From the UHGV virus genome UHGV-0121072: 39,201 nt of DNA. One strand, written 5' to 3'. A program made the translations under genes and the position numbers. This stretch comes from a virus. The notes under the pieces were generated by a model. The model searched no databases. It had not been told where the DNA came from and was given only the letters and a program-made list of their open reading frames with translations. Shown here one piece after another: positions 1,630-38,919 of this stretch (position 1 is the first letter of the stretch; every line of letters begins with the position of its first letter).

Positions 1630-1676
1630 TCACTCCTTAATCACAAACGCGAACAGAGGGACAGGACTCATTGTCC

Positions 1677-1910: not shown

Positions 1911-1934
1911 TTAGTTGTTCTCCTTTAGAGTTTA

Positions 1935-2396
1935 TTAACCGTGGTCAGATGTAACCAGTTCATTCTTGGTCCACCATCGCTTCACGTCGAAACTCGGACA
2001 GGCTTTGGCTGCTACTGAATGATGGGCCATTAGCTCTGCATTAGGGTACTTACTCATAAGCTCCTCCAGCTTGATGCGTAGGGAGTTCATCTGAGCAGGA
2101 GTGAAGTTAGCTTCAAACTTGCCCTTAGCGTCAATTCCACCTACAAGGCAGACGCCTACAGACCGTGAGTTCCAGTCCTTAACGTGTGACCCTACGACAT
2201 TGACCGGGCGACCCTCTTCCACAGTACCATCGCGCTTGATGATAAAGTGGTAGCCTACGTCCAGCCAGCCTTGCTGCTTGTGCCACATACGGATGGTCTC
2301 TACCCCGATGTCCATCTCTGGCTTGGTAGCCGAACAGTGAACGAAGATAGCGTCAGTCCGGGACCGTGGGTTGAATTGCACCTTACTCACCATCAT
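1935..2396 (-). CDS. gp3.5: T7 lysozyme / N-acetylmuramoyl-L-alanine amidase
   Basis: 153 aa; DAIFVHCSATKP, WLDVGYHFIIKRDGTVE, VCLVGGID, KACPSFD almost identical to T7 gp3.5. Confidence 0.93.
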   Translation of the reverse strand: MMVSKVQFNPRSRTDAIFVHCSATKPEMDIGVETIRMWHKQQGWLDVGYHFIIKRDGTVEEGRPVNVVGSHVKDWNSRSVGVCLVGGIDAKGKFEANFTPAQMNSLRIKLEELMSKYPNAELMAHHSVAAKACPSFDVKRWWTKNELVTSDHG

Positions 2397-2787
2397 ACAC
2401 CACCAGTTCTACTACCACTAGATTCAGGTGCTGGGTGAATCTTTGTGCGTCCGTGGTGTGCATCTGGAGACGCTTATGATTGAAGACGTGTGAGTTGCTA
2501 ATCTTCACGTAAACTTCGTCAGGCTTGCCGTGGACGATGAACGTCTGATCCACGGCAATCTTGTCGATTGTCAGGCGCTTACTGGTGATGGAAACTTCAG
2601 GAACCGCAGTCACAGGGTGGACTTCAGGTTTCACTTCCTCAAAGCGCCAGCGGAACATACCGTTGATGAATTCGTGGTTCTCTTCGGTAGCAACAAAGGT
2701 CTCACCAATTGGCGCGCAGTACTTGCTTAGCATTTCCGCAACGGAACGGTTCCAAAACGTATTTAGAACACGATAAGTCTTACTCAT
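2383..2787 (-). CDS. Hypothetical 134-aa protein with no T7 counterpart
   Basis: ATG at 2787 overlaps gp3 stop (ATGA) with AAGGAG SD 8 nt upstream; the track's upstream M is a GTG. No motif recognised. Confidence 0.5.
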   Translation of the reverse strand: MSKTYRVLNTFWNRSVAEMLSKYCAPIGETFVATEENHEFINGMFRWRFEEVKPEVHPVTAVPEVSITSKRLTIDKIAVDQTFIVHGKPDEVYVKISNSHVFNHKRLQMHTTDAQRFTQHLNLVVVELVVYDGE

Positions 2788-3239
2788 CACTTAACTCCTT
2801 TCTTCTTTGGAATGAGTATACCTGAAGGCATACGTACAGTCGCCTCTCGAAGCCACTCAACCGGGATGAATTTATCGGCAAACTTAAAGCCGTTCTTTTC
2901 GCACCATGCGCCATACGTGGTCGGAGACCCTTTGTATAACTTGGAGCGTGAACTTGAGAACACGAACCGAATGTCTAACTCTGGGTGCTGTTCTTTAATC
3001 AATAAGTGCTTCTTACGGTCTTCCACTGCGAAGATTCCCTTGGTCTCCACAATGATGCCATTTGGTAGCACAAAGTCTGGACAATAGGTATGAAGGGATT
3101 GAGGGATTGTGTACGCTATTTTATACATCTCGTACTCAGCCTTAACCCCGTTCTTCTCCAGCCACTCTTGGTTTTTTGCTTCCAGTCCAGACCGATAGAT
3201 TCCTACCGAGTGTCCTCTACTCATGCTACGTGTCGCCAT
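2787..3239 (-). CDS. gp3: Endonuclease I (Holliday junction resolvase)
   Basis: 150 aa; YCPDFVLPNGIIVETKG, DRKKHLLIKEQHPELDIRFVFSSS, KFADKFIP match T7 gp3. Confidence 0.85.
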   Translation of the reverse strand: MATRSMSRGHSVGIYRSGLEAKNQEWLEKNGVKAEYEMYKIAYTIPQSLHTYCPDFVLPNGIIVETKGIFAVEDRKKHLLIKEQHPELDIRFVFSSSRSKLYKGSPTTYGAWCEKNGFKFADKFIPVEWLREATVRMPSGILIPKKKGVK

Positions 3240-3670
3240 GTTTCTCTCCTTAGTATCTTACCTATTGTTGGCTGAGACACTCCGTAGATTGTGGCGAGTT
3301 GTCGCTGAGTAAGGATCGAAGACCTAATTTCCTTGACTTTAGTGTCAGTAAGTTTTGACATACCGCACTTCTCTCCCGGAACATGAGGAGGGTTTACACC
3401 GCGCCCCTTGTTACGCATGTCCTGAAGGTTATCCAATTGGGTCCCTACAGTAAGATGCTCAGGGTTACAACACAGCGGAGTATCACAGGTGTGTAACAGA
3501 ACGCCATTAGGTTCTTCACCTGTAATAAGCTCGTAGGCTACGCGATGTGCAAGCATGGTTTTTCCATTGTACCTAATCTGACCGTAGCCTTTGTTGTTAA
3601 CGCAGCCAGTGAAAAGCCAGCAGCTACCTGAAACCACAAGTCTCTGCTTAAGGCTTTCTACTGTAGCCAT
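3221..3670 (-). CDS. HNH homing-endonuclease-like protein
   Basis: 149 aa; HNH-like HTCDTPLCCNPEHLT and C-terminal IYGVSQPTIGKILRRETWRH as in T7 small HNH proteins; sits between SSB and endonuclease I. Confidence 0.8.
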   Translation of the reverse strand: MATVESLKQRLVVSGSCWLFTGCVNNKGYGQIRYNGKTMLAHRVAYELITGEEPNGVLLHTCDTPLCCNPEHLTVGTQLDNLQDMRNKGRGVNPPHVPGEKCGMSKLTDTKVKEIRSSILTQRQLATIYGVSQPTIGKILRRETWRHVA

Positions 3671-4368
3671 TAGAAGTCGTAATCGCCACCAGAGTTGGAG
3701 TCGTCACCACCTTCGGAACAATCGTCACCAAAGTCATCATCCCCGAAGTCACCATCGGTTGACGCTTTGTATCCAGTGCCTAGGTCTTCATCATCACCCC
3801 AGCCGCCATCTCCACCAGCGCCATCACCTTTCCATTCCTTCAGCTCTACCAGAAGGCAGGACTCAAGCTGGAGCTTAACGCTTGCACCAGTCGCAGCGTT
3901 CCACTTGAACGGTAGGACTTTAAACTTTACCTTCAGCTTTGAGCCAGCGCCAATATTCGGGACGTCACGGATTAACTTAGCATCGGTGTCGTAGAACCGT
4001 AATACGATAGGCTCTGACTTACCATCCTTCAGGTAAGACGCAAAGCATTTGAACTTCATGGTAACAGTGCCATCACCGTTCTCAATCCACGGCATGTCGC
4101 CTTCACGCGGTTCAATAGGCTTCTTGCCACGCTGAACCTGAGGTGGGTTCTTCTCGTGGTCTGCGAGTGCTTTTGCATACGCATCGTCGTGAATCTTCTG
4201 TAAGACATCAATCATCTTACGGACCTTCGGGTTGCGCAGGTCGAATGTCAGGTTGACTTTGTGTTCACCACGCTCGTTAAACTTGGTGTCTGCTTTGTTA
4301 AGCCATGCGTAAGGCTCAACGATACCAGCTACCGGAGTGGTGAAAGTCTTCAGTTGCTCTTTAGCCAT
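3670..4368 (-). CDS. gp2.5: Single-stranded DNA-binding protein
   Basis: 232 aa, same length as T7 gp2.5, with acidic Gly/Asp-rich C-terminal tail ending ...GGDYDF. Confidence 0.92.
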   Translation of the reverse strand: MAKEQLKTFTTPVAGIVEPYAWLNKADTKFNERGEHKVNLTFDLRNPKVRKMIDVLQKIHDDAYAKALADHEKNPPQVQRGKKPIEPREGDMPWIENGDGTVTMKFKCFASYLKDGKSEPIVLRFYDTDAKLIRDVPNIGAGSKLKVKFKVLPFKWNAATGASVKLQLESCLLVELKEWKGDGAGGDGGWGDDEDLGTGYKASTDGDFGDDDFGDDCSEGGDDSNSGGDYDF

Positions 4369-4408
4369 CGGTGTAAATCTCCTAATTTAAAAGTTACGAA
4401 CTGGACGT

Positions 4409-4430
4409 CTGTCCTACAGTGATAGTTTAG
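4409..4430 (-). promoter_or_regulatory. Phage RNAP promoter (variant CTAAACTATCACTGTAGGAC) upstream of gp2.5
   Basis: Consensus copy with one substitution at -3; position equals T7 phi2.5. Confidence 0.55.
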
Positions 4431-4585
4431 GTCTCAGGACGAATCCGTCCGACCACAAACCCAGCGTCCTCATACTCTTGGGACTTCAGGGTAGCCTCTT
4501 CAAGAGACTTTGCGTACACCGGGACCTCGAAGGACTGAACGCTGCCCTCAAGCTCCACGATGTATTTCTTCTCTACGTCAGTCAT
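4427..4585 (-). CDS. gp2: Host RNA polymerase inhibitor
   Basis: 52 aa from ATG at 4585 (AAGGAG SD); [14 protein letters not shown] resembles T7 gp2 SFEVPIYAETLDEAL. The track ORF extends further upstream in frame. Confidence 0.7.
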
Positions 4586-4700
4586 AAATCTCCTTGTCGA
4601 GAATCTCTTCCAGCTTAACAAGTTCCTCTTTGGATAAATCAGTGAAGTCCACGTACTCCTTAATAAGCTGGCACACAAAGTTAATCTGGTCTTGGTTCAT
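4578..4700 (-). CDS. Hypothetical small protein (gp1.8 position), 40 aa
   Basis: ATG at 4700 with AAGGAG SD 9 nt upstream; the longer track ORF starts at a GTG. Confidence 0.35.
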
Positions 4701-4778
4701 AAACCGCGCTCCTTCCATTGGTTGTATAACGTAATGTAGTCCGGGTTGAGAGTCTTCTCGTACATCTCCCTGCACCAC

Positions 4779-5117
4779 TCACTCGGCAGCATAGCACTTA
4801 CCTTTATGCAGGTCGAACAGATCCTGATAGAAGGCTGCTTTGTTCAGGTCCTTCTCCATAGTAGCCAGCTCTGACTTCTTGCCAGCCCGGAGTCGATACT
4901 TCAGGACGTTACCCATGCAGAACCCACGGAACTCACTCACAGTCATTGACCGTGCGATAATCTCAATGGATTCCACTCCGTCAAAGACTTGATAGTGAGA
5001 TGGCTTGCGAACCTCGTCATTTTTACTACACGCGTCGGCGATGACGCTGAAAACATCACCACAGTCGCACGGACCGAAGCTAAGGACCGAGCGGCACCAC
5101 TCCTTGTGCTTAGCCAT
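4779..5117 (-). CDS. gp1.7: Nucleotide kinase-like protein (C-terminal region of T7 gp1.7)
   Basis: 112 aa; KPSHYQVFDGVESIEIIARSMTVSEFRGFCMGNVLKYRLRAGKKSELA matches the T7 gp1.7 C-terminus; shorter than T7 (196 aa). Confidence 0.75.
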   Translation of the reverse strand: MAKHKEWCRSVLSFGPCDCGDVFSVIADACSKNDEVRKPSHYQVFDGVESIEIIARSMTVSEFRGFCMGNVLKYRLRAGKKSELATMEKDLNKAAFYQDLFDLHKGKCYAAE

Positions 5118-5370
5118 TTACCACCTCCTTCACGAACTCAACTAACAGACGAACGCGTGGCCACTTGGTGTAGACCACAGGTACGTTGGTCTCACGCTTT
5201 TGGCGAGCCTCTTCAGCTTTTCCCGGAGTAATCAGAGCGTAGACTGTAGGTGACAGCTTAACGGCCTTCCCGAAGTAGCCCAGCTTCTCGTCTCGCTTAA
5301 TGCAAGCGAACGGATTGTTAGACAGGTGGAATGTACCGGTATAACGATTGAACATTAAGTTCTTAAACAT
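5110..5370 (-). CDS. Hypothetical protein (gp1.6 position), 86 aa
   Basis: ATG with AAGGAGG SD; synteny only. Confidence 0.5.
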   Translation of the reverse strand: MFKNLMFNRYTGTFHLSNNPFACIKRDEKLGYFGKAVKLSPTVYALITPGKAEEARQKRETNVPVVYTKWPRVRLLVEFVKEVVNG

Positions 5371-5397
5371 GTCGGCCTCCTTAGGTCGAAGTTATGG

Positions 5398-5419
5398 TTG
5401 TCCTATAGTGATAGCTTAG
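5398..5419 (-). promoter_or_regulatory. Phage RNAP promoter (CTAAGCTATCACTATAGGAC) upstream of the gp1.6-like gene
   Basis: Consensus copy; position equals T7 phi1.5/1.6. Confidence 0.6.
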
Positions 5420-5435
5420 GGTCAGGATGGTGGCC

Positions 5436-5475
5436 CAGACGCAAAGAAACCCAGCAGTCCTAAGACCACTGGGTT
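5436..5475 (-). terminator. Intrinsic terminator candidate (TE-like) just after the ligase gene
   Basis: Minus-sense RNA AACCCAGUGGUC-UUAG-GACUGCUGGGUU gives a 12-bp stem (2 G.U) followed by UCUUUG; T7 has its host-polymerase early terminator TE after gene 1.3. Confidence 0.5.
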
Positions 5476-5484
5476 GACATTTAG

Positions 5485-6510
5485 TTAAATCTTGACTGTA
5501 GGATTATCCTCAGTCCCTCGCCATTGGTAGAATGACGGATGTCGCAAACTTCCATCTGGTGTCTCCTCCATGTAGGTAATCTGACAGGCCCAACCTTTGT
5601 AGTAATCTGGGTCTGACTTTACGTTCTCTGTGAACTCGGACATAAGGGCGCGACTAATGTTAGTTGCGGAGACCTCCATCCCGTTCTCGAGCATAACGTC
5701 GAAACCAATTACTAGACCTTCGTTTGCGAGACCTTCGGTTCCCCATACCGGGCGAACAACGTGACCGTCTGCCTCTTCGCTGGGCTTCATTTTCCACATG
5801 CCTGACTTCTTGCCACGCTTGTACTTACCCAGTGGGTCCTTGACCACCAGACCCTCATGTCCTTCAAGACGCTTCTGTTCGTACAGGGAGTTGAGCGACT
5901 CAAGGTCGTAGACCGTGTGTGACTCAGACAGAACCCAGTCGATTTCCGGGAAGTATTTCTGGAGGAGAGGGACGATAGCTTCGGCCTTCAGGCGTGTGAC
6001 GCTATGGATAGGACCTTCTGCTTTCGGGTCGGCAATGGTTGTCATGTCGACAATACCATAAACCACAACCTTAAGTCGTGACCGGGCGGCCCAGAACGGG
6101 ACCTTCTTGCCACGGTCCGGATAACATTCAGCGAACTCCTCGTTGCTGGGCTTGAGCCACTTGGTTCGAATGAGGCCTGAGGACGTATTAAAGTCCACAC
6201 CCTTGACCATGACCTCGCCATCAATCATTAGCCCGATACCTTCATAGCCAACTTGACGAAGGAACCACCGCCAGTCAGCCTGAGTCCACGCATTGCCTAA
6301 CTCAGAGTTCATCCACTCCAGTGCTGGCAGCGGTTTAGACTCACGACTTAACCAATAGGTCTCACCCTCTCGCAGCACCGGAAGATTCAACCGGACACCA
6401 TCGTACTTCACTTCAGCTTCCAGCGACCCAGCAGCTTCCAAAGCCTTCTTAATGCCAGACTCAGAGTAATCTACAGCGCGGTGCGGGTTGGTTTTGATAG
6501 TCATAGTCAT
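5485..6510 (-). CDS. gp1.3: ATP-dependent DNA ligase
   Basis: 341 aa; KxDGxR adenylation motif (EVKYDGVRLN), EGHEGLVVKDP, WKMKP, DGSLRHPSF match T7 ligase. Confidence 0.93.
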   Translation of the reverse strand: MTMTIKTNPHRAVDYSESGIKKALEAAGSLEAEVKYDGVRLNLPVLREGETYWLSRESKPLPALEWMNSELGNAWTQADWRWFLRQVGYEGIGLMIDGEVMVKGVDFNTSSGLIRTKWLKPSNEEFAECYPDRGKKVPFWAARSRLKVVVYGIVDMTTIADPKAEGPIHSVTRLKAEAIVPLLQKYFPEIDWVLSESHTVYDLESLNSLYEQKRLEGHEGLVVKDPLGKYKRGKKSGMWKMKPSEEADGHVVRPVWGTEGLANEGLVIGFDVMLENGMEVSATNISRALMSEFTENVKSDPDYYKGWACQITYMEETPDGSLRHPSFYQWRGTEDNPTVKI

Positions 6511-6758
6511 TATTTCCAGCTCCTATAAGCATTCAGTTGCTGCAAGCACCATTGCTCACAGCTAAAGATTTCGTGTTCGGTGAACTCGCGGGATACCAGA
6601 GGCTTCCCGTCTGCTTCCATGATGCTTACCAGAATTTTCCGGGAGCACGACAGGTCATCCATTCTGACCTCAAGTCCTGCCTCACTCATCTCGCGGTGGG
6701 TCCGGCCCAACGATGACCACTGGCTCGTGGACGCATCAAATAACCAACGTCTGCTCAT
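6510..6758 (-). CDS. Hypothetical protein (gp1.2 dGTPase-inhibitor position), 82 aa
   Basis: Synteny plus weak resemblance to T7 gp1.2, including the C-terminal ...WK. Confidence 0.5.
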   Translation of the reverse strand: MSRRWLFDASTSQWSSLGRTHREMSEAGLEVRMDDLSCSRKILVSIMEADGKPLVSREFTEHEIFSCEQWCLQQLNAYRSWK

Positions 6759-6761
6759 TCC

Positions 6762-6941
6762 TTATGCTCCTACGAAGTATTTCTCTTGGTTTACCAGCGA
6801 GTCTTTACCTTCAGCGTTACGGAAAGCACCTTTGACACCACCACCACGTTTAGTCTTGTTCAGCTTGCGGCCCTTCGGGATGTAGCCTTCAGTCTGCTGA
6901 CGTTCACGGATGCGCTCGAAGTTGATAGCGTTCTGATACAT
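6762..6941 (-). CDS. gp1.1: Small basic protein gp1.1-like, 59 aa
   Basis: Not in the ORF track (<60 aa); ATG at 6941, TAA at 6764..6762; contains KGRKLNKTKR as in T7 gp1.1. Confidence 0.55.
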   Translation of the reverse strand: MYQNAINFERIRERQQTEGYIPKGRKLNKTKRGGGVKGAFRNAEGKDSLVNQEKYFVGA

Positions 6942-6972
6942 ATGGTTAAATCTCCAGTAGTTTATTAGGGTT

Positions 6973-7013
6973 AATCATGAAGGCCACGACTTTGAGTCAT
7001 GACCTTGAGTCTA
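6973..7013 (-). promoter_or_regulatory. Conserved stem-loop, candidate RNase III processing site (upstream of gp1.1)
   Basis: Member of a repeated family TAGACTCAAGGTCAT-N-GTGGCCTT(T/C)ATGATTA (minus sense); stem AAGGUCAU/GUGGCCUU pairs only in minus-sense RNA because of G.U wobbles. Confidence 0.5.
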
Positions 7014-7033
7014 ATCCTATAGTGATAGTTTAG
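7012..7033 (-). promoter_or_regulatory. Phage RNAP promoter (CTAAACTATCACTATAGGAT) upstream of gp1.1
   Basis: Consensus copy; position equals T7 phi1.1. Confidence 0.7.
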
Positions 7034-7108
7034 GTTAACCTCTTCTTCGTTGGATTAAAGTGAATAATGCGAGTGCTCCTAGCCACAAGTCCAGTAACTG
7101 TAGGTCTG

Positions 7109-7324
7109 TCATTTGGTCTGCTCCAGCTTGGACACTGCGTCTTTCAGGTATTTCTCGTGGCTGGATTCCACAAGATAGACGAGGGTCTTGAATGGGACGT
7201 TAAGCTGTTTTGACATCTCGGTAGGAATGACCGTGGTCTTCACCAGACCCTTGCCGTTGTGTTCTGTTACGGTCACGATTTGAGTCCCACCATTAACGCC
7301 GGTCTGCTTGTGTGCAAATTTCAT
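7109..7324 (-). CDS. Hypothetical 71-aa protein immediately downstream of the RNAP gene
   Basis: ATG at 7324 with AGGAGA SD; no motif recognised. Confidence 0.5.
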   Translation of the reverse strand: MKFAHKQTGVNGGTQIVTVTEHNGKGLVKTTVIPTEMSKQLNVPFKTLVYLVESSHEKYLKDAVSKLEQTK

Positions 7325-7336
7325 AACTCTCTCCTG

Positions 7337-10018
7337 TTAAGCGAATGCATAGTCTGAAGACAAGACGTCTTCGATATTCAGTTTACCTTTCTTCGGAAGC
7401 TCTGGCAGCTTGTCGCGCTGGCTCTCATGAAGCTGGTATTCAAACTGCTCATAGAAGTCAAGCAGCACATCGTTGTCGCGGTAGGTCTCGACCATCGTCT
7501 CACGGACGCCACGGAACAGATACTCAGCGTCAGCCGGGATGGTACCGAAGCTATCGTGAATCACTGCGAATGACATCACGCCATACTTGCGGTGAGTGTG
7601 GACTACAGTCTTGCGTAGGTGGCTACCATCTTGTGAGTGGACGAAGTTCGGGCTAATGCCTGACTCCTGCTTGTGCTTGTCCAGCTCTTTCTTCATACCT
7701 TTATTGACTGTAGGCTGAAGGTTGAATGACCCTAAGAACATCAGGTTCAGACGAGTGGTATCCTTCTTGCGGTATTCCTGCCAGACCGGGAACCCATCAG
7801 GTGTGACCCAGTGTACCGGAAGGCAAGGCTTCAGTATTTCTCCAGTCTTCTTGTCCTTCACTTCAGCAGCCAGCAGCTTGGCAGCACCTTGAAGCCACTT
7901 CATCACGTCAACCGCAGCAACTACGGTCCCGCTCACAGCTTCCCAAATCATCTTAGCCATGAAGCGAGACGCTTGGCTTGGCTCGGTGAACATAGCTCCA
8001 GACCCTGAGTCAATCGCTGGCATCACGATGTCATCGTATACTTGGTCTGCGAATCCGTACTCTTTCGACCCGTAGGCCAGAGTCATGACTGAACGCTTAG
8101 GGACCTTACGTGACATACCGTAGGTCAGCCACTGACGGGCCAGCTCTCGTGTCCCCAGCTTGAGACGCTCGGTAATCTCACCAGTTTTCTTGTCCTCGTG
8201 AGTCACAACCTCGTTATCTGTACCGTTAACCAGCAGGACTTTAAGCTCCTCCTCAATGCGATCAGACACGATGCGGTAGATGTCTTGGACCTTACCGGAT
8301 GGCGTCAGGTTCACTGCATGTCCACCAATGTGGTCACGAAGCATCGCGCTGAAGTGCTGAATCCCAGAGCAGGACCCATCGAACGCTATCGGCAGCGAGC
8401 AGGAGTAAGACAAGCCGTGGTGCATTACGCCAGCATACTCGAAGCAGAACGCAAGGAAGCAGAACGGAGAGTCTAACTTGCCCCACCACTCAATGCTATC
8501 CATCGGTGCCTTAGCAGCAGCCATGATGTTGTCGTGGTTATCTTCCACCCACTTGATGCGCTCCTCGAAGGTGACTTTATCGACACCCGCACAGTTTGCA
8601 CCGTGGACCTTCAGCCATTTGAAACCATCAGCACCAATAGGCTTACCGACTGCCAGAGTAAGGAGACCCTTCTGCATGTCGTTACCCTGAGGGTTGAACA
8701 TCGGTACAGCGTAGACTCGACCGCGCCAGTCCATGTTGTATGGGAACCAGATGGCCTTGAACTGAGAGAACTTGTTCGCTTGGTTAACGATAAAGCTCAG
8801 TGACAATCTGCGTGACTGCCGGGCCTTCTCTCGGCGGTAGATACCGGCAGCAGCTTTCTTCCATGCCTTGAGTTCCTCTTCAGTCTCACCCACATAGTCT
8901 TCAGGCTTCAGTGGCTCCATCTGAGGGATGTCGTCAATAGGCGTGTTGTTCAACTTCTCGACCATGTTCACCACGTCCAGAACCTTCTTGTTCACTTTCC
9001 AAGGTGTATTCTGGATGATGTTGACAGCGTCATAGACTTCAGGCATGTACACGTCTTCGTAACGTGCCACCGCAGACTTAGACCCTAAGCGAATCAATGG
9101 TAACGGTCTGCGACCTTTGGCCCAGTACCCGCCGCCTACGACACCCGTCCACGGCTTAGGTGGAACGACGCAAGGCTGATAGACTGGTGCGATACCCGCA
9201 AGGCTGAATCCACGTTGTGCCATCTTCTTGACCCAGAAGTCTGACAGGTGGACCATCTCAACATCAGCCGCTGCATTGCCAGCACCATAACGCTTAAGCT
9301 CGACCAGTTGTGTGGACTGGATGACAATCTCAAGCATCTTGATGCCAACATGGACCGCCTCGGTCGGACTCCAAGTTCCCCACGCATCTTCCAGTTGACC
9401 CTGCTCCAGCATGGAGGCCTCAACCGCTTGCATGTAGGCTTTCTTGTAGGATGCCCCAGCTCGCTTGTTCAGGTTCTCAGCTATCGCCTTCTTGAAGTGC
9501 TCCTTCTCCTTGTCACGGATGCGACCGAAGCGGATTTCGTCCTCAAGTGTGCGACCTATCGCTGAGGCCATCGGTGTAATCGGTATCCCTTCAGGCTTGA
9601 CCAGCTTGGAGAGGATGACCTTCAGTATAATAACTGCAGCAGACTCGCAAGAGATACGCAGAGAGCGGTCCTTGACGGCCTTCTCTTCAGTGCTCAACAT
9701 GGTGAACGCTACGCTAGGACGAGAGGTTGACAGCTTCCCGTCTGGACCTTCATGCCACTCCCGAACGGCTTGCGCAATCTTAGGGACCAGAGTCTGCATC
9801 AAAGGCTTGGCGACCTGATTGTCTGCCAGTTCCCCGCGCTCTGTCTGGCGCTCAAGGTTCTTGATGAAACGTCGCTCGCCTTCAGTGTATGCCTCATGCT
9901 CAAGCTGAAGCTGCTTGACTGCAAGGTCTTGCCCGTAGTGGTCAGCCAGCAGGTTAAACGGCTCAATGGCGTTCGACACATCAGAGAAGTCGTGTTTGTC
10001 AATAGAGATGACGCTCAT
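7337..10018 (-). CDS. gp1: Single-subunit DNA-dependent RNA polymerase
   Basis: 893 aa; aligns along its length with T7 RNAP (FPYNMDWRGRVYA, DGSCSGIQHFSAMLRD, RSVMTLAYGSKE, HDSFGT, C-terminal ...FAFA). Confidence 0.97.
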   Translation of the reverse strand: MSVISIDKHDFSDVSNAIEPFNLLADHYGQDLAVKQLQLEHEAYTEGERRFIKNLERQTERGELADNQVAKPLMQTLVPKIAQAVREWHEGPDGKLSTSRPSVAFTMLSTEEKAVKDRSLRISCESAAVIILKVILSKLVKPEGIPITPMASAIGRTLEDEIRFGRIRDKEKEHFKKAIAENLNKRAGASYKKAYMQAVEASMLEQGQLEDAWGTWSPTEAVHVGIKMLEIVIQSTQLVELKRYGAGNAAADVEMVHLSDFWVKKMAQRGFSLAGIAPVYQPCVVPPKPWTGVVGGGYWAKGRRPLPLIRLGSKSAVARYEDVYMPEVYDAVNIIQNTPWKVNKKVLDVVNMVEKLNNTPIDDIPQMEPLKPEDYVGETEEELKAWKKAAAGIYRREKARQSRRLSLSFIVNQANKFSQFKAIWFPYNMDWRGRVYAVPMFNPQGNDMQKGLLTLAVGKPIGADGFKWLKVHGANCAGVDKVTFEERIKWVEDNHDNIMAAAKAPMDSIEWWGKLDSPFCFLAFCFEYAGVMHHGLSYSCSLPIAFDGSCSGIQHFSAMLRDHIGGHAVNLTPSGKVQDIYRIVSDRIEEELKVLLVNGTDNEVVTHEDKKTGEITERLKLGTRELARQWLTYGMSRKVPKRSVMTLAYGSKEYGFADQVYDDIVMPAIDSGSGAMFTEPSQASRFMAKMIWEAVSGTVVAAVDVMKWLQGAAKLLAAEVKDKKTGEILKPCLPVHWVTPDGFPVWQEYRKKDTTRLNLMFLGSFNLQPTVNKGMKKELDKHKQESGISPNFVHSQDGSHLRKTVVHTHRKYGVMSFAVIHDSFGTIPADAEYLFRGVRETMVETYRDNDVLLDFYEQFEYQLHESQRDKLPELPKKGKLNIEDVLSSDYAFA

Positions 10019-10087
10019 ACTTAAAGTCCTTGTTATTAGTCTTTCACTTAAAGTCTCTTTGGTCTTTCACTTGGAGTCTTAGACCTT

Positions 10088-10109
10088 GAGTCCTATAGTG
10101 ATAGTTAAG
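10088..10109 (-). promoter_or_regulatory. Phage RNAP promoter (CTTAACTATCACTATAGGAC) about 75 nt upstream of the RNAP gene
   Basis: Consensus copy with TTAAC variant also seen in two other copies; followed by two direct repeats gtctttcactt(a/g)(a/g)agtc in the leader. Confidence 0.6.
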
Positions 10110-10115
10110 TCAGAA

Positions 10116-10442
10116 TCACTTGCATATCAGTTGGTTAGCGTGAAGATGACTGAAGTCACCATGAGTCGTGTGCTTGATGGTTGACCGTTGGTCTATCGCC
10201 GTCCAGCCTGAGACCAGAAGTTTACCATCGTCAGTGATTGGTCGTCCACCATACGCCAGACACATCAGTTCGGACTTATGTCCCTCGGCCCTGAGCCTTG
10301 CTTGCAGTACCCGGTCGCGCTCCTGCTGTTGACGTTCTGAGTGACTTGAGGTCCCGTGACGGTAGCCCGTAGCCAGTGCTGAAAGCAGATTAAGGTCTGC
10401 GTCAAGTGCATGGACCAAGTTGATGCCATAAGATTTACTCAT
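10116..10442 (-). CDS. Hypothetical 108-aa early protein (occupies the slot of T7 protein kinase gp0.7)
   Basis: ORF directly upstream of the gene 1 promoter; start overlaps the stop of the preceding ORF; no kinase motifs. Confidence 0.5.
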   Translation of the reverse strand: MSKSYGINLVHALDADLNLLSALATGYRHGTSSHSERQQQERDRVLQARLRAEGHKSELMCLAYGGRPITDDGKLLVSGWTAIDQRSTIKHTTHGDFSHLHANQLICK

Positions 10443-10639
10443 TACAGTTTGCTCCCAAGAGTTGCTATATCCCAGACGTTCGCTAAGTTGCGCATGAATC
10501 GTCCGTTAGGTTGGCGCACAGTCCAGCGACCCAGACGTACATAGTTGAATTTGTAGACTTTACGCGCTTTGTTGATGTCTCTCACCAGCACGTAGACTAT
10601 AAGTCCATAGCCTATGGCTATCAATAGTGCGATACTCAT
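10442..10639 (-). CDS. Small membrane protein, 65 aa (N-terminal TM helix, basic C-terminus)
   Basis: ATG at 10639 overlaps the stop of the upstream 29-aa ORF (ATGA); hydrophobic segment IALLIAIGYGLIVYVLV. Confidence 0.45.
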   Translation of the reverse strand: MSIALLIAIGYGLIVYVLVRDINKARKVYKFNYVRLGRWTVRQPNGRFMRNLANVWDIATLGSKL

Positions 10640-10725
10640 AGTGATTTCCGTTTAATACAATCGTATATACCATAACCCATCATCCAGATAACTGGCGCTA
10701 GGCATACCCAGTAACCGATGTTCAT
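10636..10725 (-). CDS. Candidate 29-aa hydrophobic peptide
   Basis: ATG at 10725 with AGGAG SD 6 nt upstream; MNIGYWVCLAPVIWMMGYGIYDCIKRKSL; coupled to the next ORF. Confidence 0.25.
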   Translation of the reverse strand: MNIGYWVCLAPVIWMMGYGIYDCIKRKSL

Positions 10726-10751
10726 AGTTAACTCCTATCAATGTAAGTGAT

Positions 10752-10792
10752 AATCTTTGAGGCCACCTATCAGTCAGATGACCTCTCGTCTA
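10752..10792 (-). promoter_or_regulatory. Conserved stem-loop, candidate RNase III site (variant)
   Basis: aatctttgaggccac...atgacct... variant of the stem-loop family. Confidence 0.4.
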
Positions 10793-10798
10793 TCACTC

Positions 10799-11146
10799 CT
10801 ACACTTCCACCTCGATGGTTGTCATCTTGGTCACAGTAAGACCACCAGCAAGCTCAACCGCATAGCGTATCGCCTCCTCTTTGGACTTGAAGTCCTTTCC
10901 CGCAAGGTGGTATATGTCCCCTGTTATTACCTTAGATGGCCTGCGACTTACCGCAATAGCGTTTTCCATGGTAAGCTCACCACGGCTATACTGAGTAAAC
11001 CAGCGCTTCACCGAACTCGTCCCCACCCCGAACTTTTTGGCGGTTTCCGTCACCCTATCTATAACTCCCTCAGGCAGGGAGGTGTAGTAGTTAACAACGT
11101 TGAGTTTAAATGCTACCGAGAATACATTGCGAGTTTTAGCAGTCAT
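10799..11146 (-). CDS. Early protein with IS3/IS911 OrfA-type helix-turn-helix (HTH_Tnp_1-like), 115 aa
   Basis: N-terminus VFSVAFKLNVVNYYTSLPEGVIDRVTETAKKFGVGTSSVKRWFTQYSRG follows the IS3-family OrfA HTH pattern; no transposase catalytic domain follows. Confidence 0.55.
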   Translation of the reverse strand: MTAKTRNVFSVAFKLNVVNYYTSLPEGVIDRVTETAKKFGVGTSSVKRWFTQYSRGELTMENAIAVSRRPSKVITGDIYHLAGKDFKSKEEAIRYAVELAGGLTVTKMTTIEVEV

Positions 11147-11176
11147 TATTCTTTCCTTCTGTGGTTGTCAAGTGGT

Positions 11177-11210
11177 AATCACTCAGGCCACCATGTAGAT
11201 GACCTGTAGT
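11177..11210 (-). promoter_or_regulatory. Conserved stem-loop, candidate RNase III site (variant)
   Basis: aatcactcaggccacc atgtag atgacct variant of the family. Confidence 0.4.
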
Positions 11211-11217
11211 TTAACAC

Positions 11218-11343
11218 TCAGTACCCACCTGTCAGCGTTATGGTCAGACTTTGGTGATTAGCTACGTAGCAAGCACCACGCTTCATCATCTCGTAGCACC
11301 CATTGTAGAACGCCTGTTCACTGCTATAAGTTATCTGGTACAT
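11218..11343 (-). CDS. Candidate 41-aa early protein
   Basis: ATG at 11343 with GAGGA SD, TGA at 11220..11218; MYQITYSSEQAFYNGCYEMMKRGACYVANHQSLTITLTGGY. Confidence 0.3.
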   Translation of the reverse strand: MYQITYSSEQAFYNGCYEMMKRGACYVANHQSLTITLTGGY

Positions 11344-11500
11344 AGTTGCTTGTCCTCAGCGCGTAAGCTGTCGTATAGACGCTTGCGGCCCTCGTAGACC
11401 TCTTTCAGGTGACGCATAGTCGCATCGTGGTTTAACTGCCCGGTCTTGACCATAAGCCTGGCGTTGGTGACGTGGTGCTGGCAGAGACCATAAGTTAACA

Positions 11501-11845
11501 TCACTCGCAGTCCTCCTCGTCGCTCTCTTCAGCCTCAAACCAGACCACATCCGAGCTATCGAGCACGTCATTATATAGCGCCTCATAGATGCGAGCTTGC
11601 AATATACGCGTTACGTCCTTGGTCTCAGGCATCAGCCCAGAGTCTTCGAACTCGTGGTCTATACCATCAGCAGCCATCACCGTGAAGATCTCGTGGTAAT
11701 AGTGCGGAACCTGACTGTCTACGACTTCATGCAGCGCATCATGGTAGTCATCGCCTTCAGCTATTTCGTCGTACTGAATACGCTCGTTAAAGGCCTCAAC
11801 GGTTGCAGTCAGCAGCTCATAGTATGCGTTAGCGTTACGTTCCAT
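11501..11845 (-). CDS. ocr: Ocr (overcome classical restriction) DNA-mimic anti-restriction protein
   Basis: 114 aa; VPHYYHEIFTVMAADGIDHEFEDSGLMPETKDVTRILQARIYE nearly identical to T7 gp0.3; acidic C-terminus. Confidence 0.9.
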   Translation of the reverse strand: MERNANAYYELLTATVEAFNERIQYDEIAEGDDYHDALHEVVDSQVPHYYHEIFTVMAADGIDHEFEDSGLMPETKDVTRILQARIYEALYNDVLDSSDVVWFEAEESDEEDCE

Positions 11846-11876
11846 AGTTATATCCTCTCAGTTGTTAGTGACCATC

Positions 11877-11913
11877 AGTCAGGGCCTTCAGATGTAGACT
11901 CAAAGACCCTGTA
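11877..11913 (-). promoter_or_regulatory. Stem-loop upstream of ocr, candidate RNase III site
   Basis: Minus-sense CAGGGUCUU...AAGGCCCUG 9-bp stem; T7 has an RNase III site before gene 0.3. Confidence 0.4.
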
Positions 11914-12027
11914 GTTAGTCGCTATCGGCGCACATTAAGAGTTTATCCAGATTGTTAAAGAGCATTCCCTTCAGTCAGATGACTTCAGGTAGACCATTTC
12001 AGTGTTGGTCGTCACCGTTGTTTCGAT

Positions 12028-12064
12028 GTGGTACAGCTTACATCTTATCGTTACTGCTTGTCAA
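12028..12064 (-). promoter_or_regulatory. Host sigma70-type early promoter (T7 A2/A3-like)
   Basis: TTGACA, 18 bp, TAAGCT, then GTACCACATCGAAAC, closely resembling the T7 A3 region. Confidence 0.45.
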
Positions 12065-12169
12065 CTACTTTCTGTCATCTGCCTGTTGTTCGTATGACTT
12101 ATCAGGTTGTCTACTTAACCGGGATGACCCGGCGTCTTCACTATCCGGTTGTTGCCGTGTCGTGTTGAC

Positions 12170-12205
12170 GGAAGCTATTAAGCCATAGTCTAGACCTATA
12201 GTCAA
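12170..12205 (-). promoter_or_regulatory. Host sigma70-type early promoter (T7 A1-like)
   Basis: AT-rich upstream tract, TTGACT, 17 bp, CTTAAT; downstream ...CCGGTTAAGTAGACAACCTGATAAGTC resembles the T7 A1 leader. Confidence 0.4.
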
Positions 12206-12950
12206 TAGGAAATCTTAAATAATATTGATTAAGCTATCGTCGGCCCCATGGCGTAAGAGGATAGTCTTTGACTAACATGTATTAGACCTTAAGTCTATAG
12301 CTTTGTGTCTATTAGACTGTAGGTCTTTGACTGTAGGTAATGGCTTTACCGATGGTCGGTGACTGTAGGTTGTAGGACTGTAGGTTGTTGAGACCTATGG
12401 TTATACAGATAGGGACTCAGAGACAGACCAATAGTCCCTACCTATCGTCCTGACCTCCAGCCATAGCCTCTACCTATCGTTGACCAATAGTCCCACCTAT
12501 CGTTGACCAATAGTCCCACCTATCGTTGACCAATAGTCCCACCATCTGTCCAACCCTTATGATAGACTGGAGGTAGGGGCCACCCTTTGTCTGGACTGAA
12601 AGAGGGCCTATGGGGAGACTTGAGGTTCTTGAACTGTGAGATGTGGTCTCAAACTTTTGGTATAAAACTCATCGAAGACTGTAGGTGGCAGCTACTGTAG
12701 GTCAAGGACCGTAGGTCAGGCGACACTAGGATAGACCAATAAGTAGGATGACCCTAAGTGAGATTCTATTAAGGTGTTACCTAAAGTCCTTGACTACAGT
12801 ATCTAAGGTCAGTAGAGTAGCGTCAGCTATGAACTGACCTTAGGTCTTCAATGCGCGTATTCCCACTCCGTCTGATAATCTTCATCAGAGAACGACCCAT
12901 AAGACTCCTCGTCCATCCCTACCTCCTTTCGTTGATTGTTACCATGATTG
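12206..12950. repeat. Non-coding genome-terminus region with dispersed decamer repeats (plus-strand gactgtaggt and variants, at least 7 copies)
   Basis: No credible ORF; repeated decamers at 12315, 12329, 12361, 12377, 12677, 12693, 12707; position (between gene 19.5-like ORF and early promoters) equals the T7 terminal repeat/concatemer junction. Confidence 0.6.
12425..12551. repeat. Tandem repeat array, 23-bp unit acctatcgttgaccaatagtccc: 3 perfect copies (12472..12540) plus degenerate flanking copies
   Basis: Seen directly; contiguous identical units without spacers. Confidence 0.85.
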
Positions 12951-12952
12951 CG

Positions 12953-13111
12953 TTAATTACACTGAGACACCAGAGAACATACGAGAGTCTCGACCCACCC
13001 GACCCACTGACTTCCAGCAGTAACGCCAGCAGCAAGTAGAACAGCAGTAAGAAACCTATATGTAGCTCGATTGGTCGCCAGAGCTTTAAGTACAGCTTTG
13101 GTCTTTGCCAT
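12953..13111 (-). CDS. Candidate 52-aa membrane protein (gene 19.5 position)
   Basis: ATG at 13111 with AGGAGG SD; hydrophobic FLTAVLLAAGVTAGSQWVGWV; downstream of the terminal promoter as in T7. Confidence 0.3.
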   Translation of the reverse strand: MAKTKAVLKALATNRATYRFLTAVLLAAGVTAGSQWVGWVETLVCSLVSQCN

Positions 13112-13291
13112 ATGCTACATACCTCCTGTATCTATGGTCTGTGACTATCTGTATTGGAGGGATTATGATTAATATCACCCTCCTTCCATCGGTGCAAGCC
13201 TTAGGTAAGAACTCGGAGTCTGCCTCCTAAGGTCTTGCATAAAGTCTGCATATGTATATTCACTACAGTAATACTATAAGTAACCGGGGGT

Positions 13292-13313
13292 CTTCCCTAT
13301 AGTGATAGTTAAG
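13292..13313 (-). promoter_or_regulatory. Phage RNAP promoter (CTTAACTATCACTATAGGGA) after the terminase gene (phiOR-like)
   Basis: Consensus copy near the genome right end. Confidence 0.7.
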
Positions 13314-13408
13314 TCCAAACTCCTTGTAAAACAGTAGGTTAGACTGGTAGTAACTATAGGTTACTAACCGCGTATTAATGCAGCTTTCACCAATAGTTAT
13401 TCATTCAT

Positions 13409-15172
13409 CTAGTGGAACGTAACGTAGGACCCTAGTCCCAGCTCGTCGTCCGTATCGTGAGTTACCCGGACCCCATTGTCCCAGAACTCAGTGTGGATGG
13501 ACTCGAAGCCTTTCCGTGGGTTCTCCATCTGTTCCTCCAGCCACTCCTCAGTGACTTCACGTTCGCCTTTGTTGGCATCCTTAGCCATCGACTCAACGAA
13601 GAACTGTACACCGATAGCCAGCGCATCAAGTCGGTCATCGTGTGCCAAGGCTCCACGTTCACGAGAGATACGGGTCATCTGGTAGAAGAGAGAGTAGATA
13701 GGGTTACGAACACCATCCTTGTCAGAGGCTGTCTGGTAGTCTTGGACGATAGCAGCAGCGTTAACGATAAGTCGGTGAGACCCCATGATAGGCTCCAGAA
13801 CGTCACAGATGCGGAGTTCTTTCTGACCCTTACTCTTCACTTCAGTTACAGCAGCAGGATGGATACGGGCCGCTACAGGCTTGAATAGCTCAAGGTACAT
13901 ACCATCACCGAAGTTACCCTCAATGACGTATTCGTTGACCTTCCACTTATGACCAATCTTAGCCAGAGCTTCCAGAGTAGAGTCTTCGTATCCACCACGC
14001 ATACCACCAACCTCCATAGCGAAGATGTAGCCGTTGAGCTGGTACAATACCGCATAACCAGTTTCATCCTTACCACGACCACTAGGGTCAATGACCAGAA
14101 TCTTCTGGGTGTATGAGCTGAACGCAGAACCTACAGTCTGATACGTGTGGTACGAGTCACCAATGAGTCCAACGTTAGGAACGTCCTCACGCTTGTTCTG
14201 ATGGTTCGGCAACCATTGGTAGACCATTGGGCTAGACGCTGGGTCTAAGTCCGCTACGATAAGGTCACGGAGCTTCAGAGGGTATTTCTCGGCATCACTC
14301 AGGTTCGGGTTAAGCATGAACTGTAGAGCGAAGCCAGCTTTACCGTAGGACAGCTCACGTTCCTTCAGGTCAGTATCGTCGAATCGAACTTCATCGGTCG
14401 GACGCCAGTAGAAGGCCTCAGGGTCCTCTTCAAGCTCTGCCTGAAGCATAGGAGCCAGACGGTCTCCGTAAGACTGCCAGTCCTTCCTGTCGCGTGGATA
14501 ACGAGCAGGCCAGATAGTAGTGGTGTATCCACGGCCTTCTAGCTCACGATACAAGGTCATCTCGTTCTGAGGAGTACCCAGATAGATGATTGTACCTCCC
14601 GGCTTCAGGATAGCGTCGAACTCTTTCACAAGCTCTGACAGGCGGTCTCTTGCAGCCTGAGTCGCTGAGTTGTTCGGAACCTCAACGTCATCGGCAATCA
14701 GGATGTCAGCACGACTACCAGTCAACTGACCAGTGATACCAACTGACTTAACAGAAGGTGAGTGGTCAGGCTTGGCTGGCCCAACGTCGAAGCTAATAAC
14801 CGCATCTCGCTGTCCCTGCTTAGGTTTGAGTTCCTGAAGCTGAGGCATGAGGTCGATGATTCGCTTGATGAATATGGAGTTAGCATCAGCTCGTTCCTTT
14901 GAGGCAGACACAATCATGAACTTCAAGTCTGGGTTGTTCCATAGTTTCCAGACCACGAATGCACACGTAATGAAGGACTTCCCGATACCACGGAACGCCT
15001 GTAAGATGAAACGCCTGTTGTCCCCAGCCGATAGTTTCTTCGCCATGTCAATCTGACAGCGAGTCGGGACTGGGAGTGACAGAGCTTTCCATAGAACAAA
15101 CAGGAAGAACACGAAGTCTGCCTTCATACGGGCAGTCATTAGCGCCTGACGCGCCACTAAGTCTTTACTCAA
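13409..15172 (-). CDS. gp19: Terminase large subunit (TTG start)
   Basis: 587 aa; [73 protein letters not shown] match T7 gp19. Start codon at 15172..15170 is TTG with AAGGAGG SD 7 nt upstream. Confidence 0.93.
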
Positions 15173-15773: not shown

Positions 15774-15825
15774 AGTTGCCCTCCCAGTTTTCCAGATTTC
15801 ACGTAGCGTTACCTACGATAGTGTT

Positions 15826-15867
15826 AATCATAAAGGCCACCTACTACATGTAGATGACCTTGAGTCT
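15826..15867 (-). promoter_or_regulatory. Conserved stem-loop, candidate RNase III site (between gp18 and gp18.5)
   Basis: aatcataaaggccac ctactacatgtag atgaccttgagtcta; T7 has an RNase III site at this junction. Confidence 0.5.
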
Positions 15868-15882
15868 AACACTTAAGAGATA

Positions 15883-29437: not shown

Positions 29438-29478
29438 AAAAAAAAACCCTCAAGCACCCGAAGGCACCCAAGGGTTTT
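29438..29478 (-). terminator. Tphi-like transcription terminator after gene 10
   Basis: Minus-sense RNA ACCCUUGGGUGCC-UUCG-GGUGCUUGAGGGU (13-bp stem with G.U pairs, UUCG loop) followed by a run of 9 U; same position and style as T7 Tphi. Confidence 0.75.
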
Positions 29479-29488
29479 CATATAGTTA

Positions 29489-38856: not shown

Positions 38857-38877
38857 GGTTAATCCCCCGTTTAATCT

Positions 38878-38916
38878 AATCATAAAGGCCACTCGCTGTG
38901 AATGACCTTGAGTCTA
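38878..38916 (-). promoter_or_regulatory. Conserved stem-loop, candidate RNase III site (upstream of gene 5)
   Basis: aatcataaaggccac tcgctgtga atgaccttgagtcta, third near-identical copy of the family. Confidence 0.5.
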
Positions 38917-38919
38917 GAC

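Follow-up and report, generated by a model that had tools for sequence, protein, structure and literature searches.

A probable self-amplifying promoter directly upstream of the RNA polymerase gene in a K1F-like phage genome

The first promoter served by the phage polymerase lies far upstream of the polymerase gene (gene 1) in the best-described T7-like phages. This promoter, phiOL, is found at nt 405 in T7, at nt 366–388 in T3, and at nt 479–501 in K11, which places it about 2.5–2.8 kb upstream of gene 1 and to the left of the host promoters (A1–A3 in T7). None of the three phages presents a phage promoter directly ahead of gene 1, which starts at nt 3171 in T7. In T3, this position is occupied by an annotated RNase III stem-loop (R1, nt 2908–2956), and the sequences of T7 and Berlin carry an R1-type hairpin in the same slot. 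Further phage promoters follow gene 1, namely phi1.1A/B in T7 and phi1.05, with the annotated primary origin, in T3; these promoters constitute the primary origins of the two phages. Although gene 1 of T7, T3, and K11 is located downstream of phiOL, these phages have no known strong autoregulation of gene 1, and the T7 polymerase is subject to negative feedback by the T7 lysozyme. The initial annotation of the locus described here contrasted it with a T7 gene 1 that has no phage promoter before it. This description is correct for the 0.7–1 intergenic region, which contains no T7 promoter, but it is inexact beyond that region, because phiOL lies upstream of the whole early region and precedes gene 1 by about 2.6 kb.

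Our analysis was based on a viral DNA sequence of 39,201 nt (UHGV-0121072), the whole of which is referred to as the window. The ORFs of the window are encoded on the minus strand. A 2.5-kb query centered around the promoter described below matched 224 phage records, mostly with 90–95% identity, and the matched records that we inspected were classified as Kayfunavirus (K1F-like Studiervirinae) with Escherichia, Salmonella, Citrobacter, or Enterobacter listed as hosts. Based on the minus-strand ORFs and on these matches, the sequence identifies the window as a K1F-like genome that is reverse-complemented and circularly permuted. The product of its gene 1 is 98.4% identical to the K1F RNA polymerase (RNAP). 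The K1F genome (DQ111067) presents the same promoter, with +1 at nt 2491, followed by the same leader and the same 75 nt to the ATG of the RNAP gene. Across a 301-nt block around the promoter and leader, K1F and the window are 97% identical, with a few SNPs in hairpin loops and no essential difference. The features of the locus are listed in Table 1.

Table 1. Coordinates of the features discussed in the text (positions in the window)
Feature	Position	Strand	Details
gp3.5-type amidase/lysozyme	1935..2396		phrog_822
Homologue of the host RNAP inhibitor gp2	4678..4427	-	PF16857
Gene 1, single-subunit RNA polymerase	7337..10018	-	893 aa; Pfam RNA_pol 3e-106, RPOL_N 1.5e-14
Gene 1 translation initiation region	10011..10031	-	SD AAGGA 10031..10027, spacer CTTTAAGT, ATG 10018..10016
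Gene 1 mRNA leader (predicted)	10019..10093	-	75 nt; A-rich and purine-rich
Direct repeat, copy 2	10036..10056	-	AGACTTTAAGTGAAAGACTAA (gene strand)
5'-proximal hairpin (predicted fold)	10055..10090	-	CUC..GGUCU..ACU-CCA-AGU..AGACC..GAG
Direct repeat, copy 1	10059..10079	-	AGACTCCAAGTGAAAGACCAA (gene strand)
Putative K1F-type phage RNAP promoter	10088..10110	-	-17 to +6: aCTTAACTATCACTATA followed by GGACTC; motif statistics, conserved position, loop co-variation
Last early ORF before the promoter	10116..10442	-	108 aa; phrog_7066, function unknown

The early region of the window contains ocr, which was detected with Pfam. The ORFs located between ocr and gene 1 encode small proteins of unknown function (115 aa at most), and none of them matched a kinase family in Pfam or PHROG. 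Since no ORF of this interval exceeds 115 aa and none is kinase-like, the Kayfunaviruses appear to lack the gp0.7 kinase. Whole-genome scans of the window and of K1F, Ro103C3lw, Ro45lw, and Kc166A did not reveal any phiOL-like copy either. One early ORF (10799..11146) resembles HTH proteins and might represent a regulator acting on the repeats of the gene 1 leader; its matches to Pfam and PHROG were all below threshold.

The initial annotation had proposed that a consensus promoter is found at 10092..10109, about 75 nt upstream of the gene 1 ATG, and our analysis bears this out. The 18-mer CTTAACTATCACTATAGG is present on the minus (gene) strand at 10109..10092 without a single mismatch to the motif. 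The predicted +1 is G10093, which is separated by 75 nt from the A of the RNAP ATG (10018), and the site matches both the invariant core TCACTATAGG and the +1 G of a consensus of about 23 bp. The stop codon of the preceding ORF (10116) is located 6 nt ahead of the 18-mer; the promoter, lying between this stop codon and the ATG, is therefore intergenic. When up to three mismatches were allowed, we identified 11 matches to the 18-mer across the window, all of them on the gene strand, relative to an expectation of 0.02 by chance, and none of 100 shuffled sequences reached this number. We then scored all sites with a leave-one-out weight matrix covering positions -20 to +8. The 11 copies obtained 25.7–39.8 bits and the copy preceding gene 1 obtained 27.4 bits, which ranks it ninth, while the best non-promoter site of the genome reached 15.7 bits. 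This genome-wide matrix yielded no weaker promoter copy elsewhere in the early region. On the linear genome, the pre-gene-1 copy is thus the phage promoter located farthest to the left; like phiOL of T7, T3, and K11, it is the first phage promoter and it lies upstream of gene 1.

The start of the predicted transcript, GGAC, had been regarded as a variant initiation region. It is not aberrant in the window, since the copies at 5402 and 4413 start in the same way and three more copies start with GGA, so that GGA starts are found for six of the 11 promoters. GGAC is a normal start of the early/middle type in this genome.

The position of the promoter is conserved across relatives. Whole-genome scans of K1F, Ro103C3lw, Ro45lw, and Kc166A showed a promoter 74–81 nt before the RNAP ATG in every case, and it was the leftmost promoter of each genome. 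The promoter was also present in all 12 GenBank relatives that we sampled, down to 74% identity, and in all 19 RNAP gene starts obtained from IMG/VR. The latter set was retrieved using only the ribosome-binding site (RBS) and ATG and is therefore unselected for the presence of a promoter. The sequence around the promoter is conserved as well: the 301-nt block is 95–99% identical in 143 of 222 phage records, whereas the 2.5 kb around it mostly show 90–95% identity.

In addition to being conserved, the promoter changes together with the polymerase. Every promoter of Ro103C3lw, including the copy preceding gene 1, presents the T3-like sequence AAACCCTCACTATAGG. The specificity loop of its RNAP reads TRLDLMFLGTFRLQPT, in contrast to TRLNLMFLGSFNLQPT in the window, K1F, Ro45lw, and Kc166A: the Ro103C3lw enzyme possesses D and R, as does T3, at the two positions where K1F-type enzymes possess N and N. 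Loops with N/N are paired with AACTAT promoters and loops with D/R are paired with AACCCT promoters. The two differing positions are those of T7 N748 and R756, residues known to determine specificity. As judged from these sequences, the Ro103C3lw lineage illustrates neatly how, in nature and inside a single genus, the specificities of promoter and polymerase have switched in concert. Within Kc166A, the early and middle promoters, including the one preceding gene 1, present CACTGTAGG and the late promoters present CACTATAGG. In a published experiment, a T7 RNAP equipped with the specificity loop of K1F showed orthogonal activity on a promoter with the -12 to -7 consensus of the K1F subfamily (PMC3458549).

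These results bear on a further possibility, in which the site would be a relic without function or would resemble the consensus by chance. Its below-median matrix score would be compatible with such an origin, but a perfect 18-mer at a chance expectation of 0.02, its conservation in every relative that we examined, and its switch to a T3-like version along with the polymerase make this explanation hardly credible. Because the promoter is conserved in position and switches with the specificity loop of the polymerase, it is almost certainly functional. More specifically, we consider it likely that the site serves the phage's own K1F-type RNAP as a functioning promoter, that it is of the early/middle, class II-like kind with a GGA start, and that it is the first to be encountered on the linear genome. 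The promoter may nevertheless be weak, based on its ninth rank among 11 copies and on a TATA region that departs, in some lineages, from the consensus of the genome (CACTAAAGG in the Ro45lw type and CACTTTAGG in ASO2B).

The arrangement of the locus suggests that the polymerase probably boosts its own production through this promoter, 75 bases before its gene. In the circuit that we propose, the host RNAP would first transcribe the early region from ocr through gene 1, because the phage polymerase is absent from the cell at entry and a promoter that needs this polymerase cannot start its production. The upstream sigma-70 candidates are weak matches to the consensus and not more numerous than in shuffled sequences; TTGACT and TTGACA boxes are found at about 12205 and 12064 without convincing -10 elements. 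Because these matches are weak, the bootstrapping step is deduced from necessity and from the T7-like gene order. The first polymerase molecules would then initiate at G10093 and produce an mRNA composed of the 75-nt leader, gene 1, and downstream genes. We did not identify any intrinsic terminator-like site between 6800 and 13500, an interval covering gene 1 and its flanks, and a transcript starting at 10093 must therefore run into gene 1. On the gene strand, no terminator-like site was detected near gene ends in 1–6900, and transcription would run on into the middle genes. The sole strong terminator in the regions scanned, which leave out 31001–39201 on the path, is a Tphi-like hairpin that follows the capsid gene (29479..29442). 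Gene 1 would in this way be placed under positive feedback and become independent of the host RNAP once the latter is shut off by the gp2 homologue. The gp3.5-type amidase/lysozyme could in turn exert a negative control, as in T7.

The suggestion of the initial annotation that the RNAP could amplify its own transcription is thus in agreement with the motif statistics, the genus-wide position of the promoter, its co-variation with the specificity loop, and the lack of a terminator before the gene. We infer autoregulation from the wiring of the locus, and the same applies to initiation at G10093, to the strength of the feedback, and to the role of the leader repeats; searches of the literature accessible to us returned no transcript-mapping data for Kayfunavirus.

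Alternatively, the promoter might act as a substitute for phiOL in replication or entry. It would give rise to a transcript that primes or activates DNA replication, comparable to those of T7 phi1.1A/B, T3 phi1.05, or phiOL, or the RNAP would drive the internalisation of the genome, and the self-transcription of gene 1 would be a by-product. The lack of a phiOL-like copy left of gene 1 would fit this role, and the Kayfunaviruses also lack the promoter and AT-rich module that T7 and T3 possess right after gene 1. The composition of the leader points in the same direction: among the 11 promoter-proximal regions, it ties with that of copy 34585 for the lowest G+C (0.37, relative to 0.50 for the genome) and is the most purine-rich (0.64, relative to 0.53). 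The T7 phi1.1B leader and the annotated T3 origin further have several motifs in common with it, namely CTYAAGGTCT, ACTTTAAG, AAGAC, and the RBS GGACTTTAAGTATG, and the opposite strand of window-type leaders contains TGGTC, a sequence that T7-type primases recognize.

Several observations argue against this interpretation, however. Based on a score of 77, relative to 28.9 +/- 6 (z about 8), a relationship between the leader and the origins of T7 (phi1.1B) and T3 (phi1.05) was considered; it was rejected as evidence, as this score is driven by the identical 15-nt RBS. Without the shared RBS, the similarity is marginal: dinucleotide shuffles reach the observed score in 29 of 1000 cases for T7 and in 81 of 1000 cases for T3 (p about 0.03 and 0.08), and other T7 loci score equally well against the leader. 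The leader is 63% A+T, whereas the full T7 phi1.1B leader is 71% A+T and its AT-rich core is even higher. Finally, the conservation of TGGTC does not extend to the Ro45lw-type leader. We consider it unlikely that replication or entry is the principal role of the promoter.

The leader itself resembles the RNase III sites of the T7 group, and its hairpin can be regarded as a diverged version of the R1.1 type. It begins with the segment GACUCAAGGUC (10092..10082), which is the 5' arm of the window's own RNase III-type sites, and it presents the 5' arm ACUCAAGGUC(A) that is used to recognize R sites. Exact copies of the sequence GACTCAAGGTC, which corresponds to +2 to +12 of the leader, are found on the gene strand at 7011, 15866, and 38914, each continuing as ...GTGGCCTTYATGATTA; this sequence also constitutes the 5' arm of T7 R1.1 and of T3 R0.3 and R0.5. 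Judging from their likeness to T7 R1.1 (ACTCAAGGTCATTCGCAAGAGTGGCCTTTATGATTG) and to the annotated R0.3, R0.5, R1.1, and R1.3 of T3, these three sites of the window have the architecture of T7-group RNase III sites. We conducted a pattern scan for the canonical 3' arm GUGGCCUUYAUGAUU, which yielded sites at 38917, 15869, 11214, and 7014 and no match in the gene 1 leader. The site at 11214 represents a fourth RNase III-type candidate in the window and is R1-like.

The leader has retained the 5' arm together with an internal segment, GACUC-N-AAGU, that is much like the 7014 site. Its 3' arm reads AAAGACCAAAG, which leaves only the GGUCU/AGACC and ACU/AGU hairpin, with stems of 5 bp and 3 bp, relative to an upper stem of about 12 bp (10–12) in true R sites. 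RNA folding was compared to shuffled sequences. The canonical RNase III-type sites fold at z-scores of -3.4 to -3.9, whereas the stability of the promoter-initiated leader RNA does not exceed that of shuffles (z -0.31), and neither the leader alone (z 0.15) nor a 191-nt context (z 0.12) shows any significance. A scan of 6500–13600 against Rfam (E<=1) returned no match. Across 13 leader sequences of low diversity, RNAalifold predicted a weak consensus (-3 kcal/mol), which pairs the 5' ACU..AGGUC with the RBS, and it detected no covariation or compensatory changes. Scans of viral contigs returned the same few leader types, and a single metagenome scan returned mostly chance matches with a few near-identical leaders; because sequence diversity is this low, the covariation tests are underpowered.

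Promoters joined to RNase III hairpins are common in this group of phages. In the T7 phi1.1A-R1.1 module and in the T3 phi1.1-R1.1 and phi1.3-R1.3 modules, +1 abuts a hairpin starting with ACUCAAGGUC and transcription starts with GGA or GGG, as in the window; the annotated stem-loops of the two T3 modules overlap the ends of the promoters. The window possesses a module of its own combining a promoter and an RNase III hairpin at 7033..6969. The gene 1 leader differs from the T7 and T3 modules in that the 3' arm is replaced by AAAGACCAAAG, that the stem is much weaker, and that the module precedes gene 1 rather than following it. The simplest reading of these sequences is that the leader derives from a T7-group module of promoter and RNase III-type hairpin whose hairpin has decayed, or from a promoter that became fused to an ancestral R1 site.

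The leader also contains repeated sequences. The initial annotation had noticed two direct repeats, which we recovered as 21-nt copies that are 86% identical and spaced by 23 nt. They are the middle members of a family of four degenerate 18-nt units (10011–10028, 10038–10055, 10061–10078, and 10075–10092) that extends from the transcription start to the RBS and ATG, the unit at the RBS being the fourth and most diverged copy. The RBS GGACTTTAAGTATG is identical to that of T7 gene 1.1. Two of the units, AGACTCCAAGTGAAAGAC and AGACTTTAAGTGAAAGAC, are similar to the actual initiation region AAGGACTTTAAGTATGAGCGT, and we read the direct repeats as likely serial duplications of the RBS unit of gene 1 that subsequently decayed. 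The 23-nt repeat as such is not kept in the Ro45lw-type, Kc166A, and L114 leaders, in which short RGACT-N3-AAGT elements recur. Two other interpretations of the repeats were rejected. As upstream mini-ORFs (GUG AAA GAC UAA), they differ in reading frame and stop codons from one leader type to another. As inverted promoters on the opposite strand (TTTCACTTAAAG), they contain one extra base and do not match the specificity region, and the weight matrix yielded nothing above 12 bits on this strand.

The repeats might additionally pair with the promoter when it is transcribed as part of a longer RNA. The AGTGA of the repeats is complementary to the promoter core TCACT, and the promoter core UCACUAUAGG finds a partial complement in the segment CUUUAAGUGA of repeat copy 2 (10053..10044), with which it is paired in the predicted fold of the read-through RNA. 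This RNA is predicted to form one long interrupted hairpin in which UCACU/AGG is paired with CUU/AGUGA. For a tightly trimmed segment including the promoter, the predicted fold reaches -17.4 kcal/mol and is modestly significant (z -2.48). Comparable values were obtained for the Ro45lw type (z -2.44), for Kc166A (z -2.33), and for the Ro103C3lw type (z -3.07). In the Ro45lw type, the pairing involves a perfect 11-nt inverted repeat (TATCACTAAAG/CTTTAGTGATA), and the A at position -2 is unique to the pre-gene-1 promoter copy of that genome. The leader and promoter region of the window contains no inverted repeat of at least 9 nt, and the promoter-repeat stem is not formed in the fold predicted for the L114-type leader.

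Such pairing raises the possibility that the block is conserved chiefly as an R1-type hairpin for the RNase III processing or stability of host-made early RNA, with the promoter core as the 5' strand of its lower stem and the promoter-like sequence being kept at least partly for pairing. The R1 stem-loop annotated in T3 and the matching hairpins of T7 and Berlin are located exactly at this position, the leader starts with the exact 5' arm found at 7014, 15869, and 38917, and both the read-through folds of the four leader types and the inverted repeat and -2 A of the Ro45lw type would be expected. On the other hand, the leader lacks the canonical 3' arm and has a short upper stem, the window itself lacks a long inverted repeat, the L114-type leader lacks the stem, RNAalifold detected no covariation, and Rfam returned no match. 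Moreover, the SNPs of type-A leaders are not clearly enriched at unpaired positions, two lineages break predicted pairs, and promoter function, not pairing, accounts for the way in which positions -8 to -12 co-vary with the polymerase loop. We give little credence to RNA processing as the main reason for the conservation of the block.

Promoter function and pairing could also be combined in a single dual-use module. In host-made read-through RNA, the promoter, paired with the distal AGUGA repeat, would make up the lower stem of an R1-like processing or regulatory hairpin; polymerase-made RNA, which would start within this stem, would escape it. The decayed RBS copies would act as standby or regulatory sites, and the module may have replaced the missing phiOL in replication or entry. 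If this were true, the gene 1 mRNAs made early and those made by self-amplification would differ in how they are processed, in how stable they are, or in how they are translated. We judge this combined model to be rather improbable, and the pairing between promoter and leader should be considered as a lead and not as a finding.

Self-transcription of gene 1 from the adjoining promoter is our preferred reading, and a cognate promoter adjoining the polymerase gene has been described before. In the Pseudomonas phage LUZ100, phi1 is located directly upstream of the RNAP gene, its transcription start was mapped, and a positive feedback loop was proposed (PMC10134795). For the Vibrio phage phiA318, a similar promoter (phi-A8) was predicted upstream of the RNAP gene and autoregulation was proposed (PMC4099482). 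In these circuits, as in the one that we propose, the host RNAP would supply the first polymerase before self-amplification sets in. LUZ100 is a distant, temperate-like relative of T7 in which a MarR-type repressor was proposed to gate the loop, whereas no repressor is evident in the window. In the Kayfunavirus Sparklingdew, the repeat CTWAACTATCACTATAGG was reported in 2026 as putative promoters, one copy being located at the 3' end of SPD_007 (PMC13298934). The gene that follows, SPD_008, encodes the RNAP, but that study does not discuss whether the RNAP transcribes its own gene (PMC13298934).

The promoter preceding gene 1 must be regarded as already known, because the published consensus includes this copy and because LUZ100 and phiA318 provide precedents for the feedback. 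It is contained in the K1F sequence, available since 2005, and in more than 200 records. The modestly new elements are the explicit evidence for its genus-wide presence and its co-variation with the polymerase, the view that the leader is a promoter/RNase III module which has decayed and is followed by duplicated RBS units, and the predicted pairing between promoter and leader. Current understanding remains unchanged, but annotations are refined: the copy preceding gene 1 is missing from the annotation of several database records, among them the GenBank record of K1F, in which promoters are not annotated, and the RefSeq record of Ro45lw.

K1F-type polymerase/promoter pairs already serve as orthogonal parts in synthetic biology. 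The synthetic T7 'autogene' made by Dubendorff and Studier in 1991 reportedly carried an engineered cognate promoter upstream of the polymerase. The cassette of the window, composed of promoter, 5' hairpin, leader, and RBS, could represent a natural autogene and a ready-made self-amplifying module. With a positive feedback loop built in, the supply of polymerase need not stop upon inhibition of the host RNAP. Our results suggest a genus-wide departure from the textbook circuit of T7, in which K1F-like phages appear to lack both the gp0.7 kinase and phiOL and present a cognate promoter adjoining the polymerase gene.

Ro45lw (NC_048136), a relative of the window phage, carries a perfect 11-nt inverted repeat, TATCACTAAAG / CTTTAGTGATA (2407-2417 / 2461-2471), whose arms flank the transcription start of its pre-gene-1 promoter. 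The same inverted repeat was found in SAKp10309, LET1, CHRF_30001, ENT2 and several IMG/VR contigs. The A at position -2 that the repeat requires is unique to the pre-gene-1 copy among the promoters of the Ro45lw genome. The RefSeq annotation of this genome gives seven other promoters and omits this one.

Promoter sequences also vary within Kayfunavirus. Across the whole genome of Ro103C3lw (MN067430), every promoter is of the T3-like form AAACCCTCACTATAGG, and this lineage also includes CtuP_B1, 01_vB_Eclo_IJM, L017 and L098. The RNA polymerase of the Ro103C3lw lineage has a specificity loop changed from N..N to D..R together with a T7-like AT-rich recognition loop. This is a natural switch of polymerase/promoter specificity within a single genus. 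In Kosakonia phage Kc166A, the promoter classes are cleanly divided by sequence: all of the early and middle promoters (3296, 6869, 8554, 9629 and 14777) read CACTGTAGG, and the late promoters (18874 onward) read CACTATAGG.

Features identified in the window, with position, strand and context
Feature	Position	Strand	Context
HNH endonuclease ORF, 149 aa	3221..3670	minus	PF13392, 1.3e-9; C-terminal HTH
RNase III-type hairpin, canonical T7-group, …ACTCAAGGTCAT…GTGGCCTTYATGATTA	7014..6969	minus	position as T7/T3 R1.1
Early ORF, 115 aa	10799..11146	minus	helix-turn-helix matches, sub-threshold
RNase III-type hairpin, canonical T7-group, R1-like, ACAGGTCATC…GGTGGCCTGA	11214..11173	minus	early region
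23-nt unit GGTGGGACTATTGGTCAACGATA, three to four tandem copies	about 12545..12470	minus	non-coding genome-end region
Phage promoter copy	13313..13296	minus	directly after tail-fibre gene, ahead of genome-end region
Tail-fibre/spike ORF, 587 aa	13409..15172	minus	
RNase III-type hairpin, canonical T7-group, …ACTCAAGGTCAT…GTGGCCTTYATGATTA	15869..15822	minus	position as T7/T3 R18.5
Terminator, strong, 17-bp stem + T-run	29479..29442	minus	downstream of major capsid gene
RNase III-type hairpin, canonical T7-group, …ACTCAAGGTCAT…GTGGCCTTYATGATTA	38917..38874	minus	before DNA polymerase gene

Three of the four RNase III-type sites in the window were folded, and these gave z values of -3.4 to -3.9 relative to shuffled sequence. 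The HNH ORF is flanked by the genes for the ssDNA-binding protein and endonuclease I and is likely a homing endonuclease insertion. The early ORF could encode a small DNA-binding protein: its sub-threshold matches are to BrkDBD (1.4e-4) and a transposase-HTH PHROG (5e-4), and a NinH-like protein is annotated around this region in one relative. The tail-fibre/spike ORF is shorter than the K1F endosialidase gene (32666-35860, about 1,064 aa), so the receptor specificity of the window phage probably differs from that of K1F.

Because the promoter behind the tail-fibre gene lies between that gene and the genome end, it is phiOR-like. Its K1F counterpart is at nt 38869 of 39704. In the circularly permuted assembly of the window, the promoter is directed over the genome junction to the early region. 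Near the 23-nt tandem array, many short CCTACAGTC-like repeats occupy 12400-12330, and these genome-end repeats are reminiscent of the arrays adjoining the T7 terminal repeats. The terminator is at a position equivalent to Tphi. Finally, T7 (5993-6009) and Kayfunavirus (window 10031..10016) have the same 14 nt, GGACTTTAAGTATG, as a translation initiation region, but it stands before different genes: gene 1.1 in T7 and gene 1 in Kayfunavirus.
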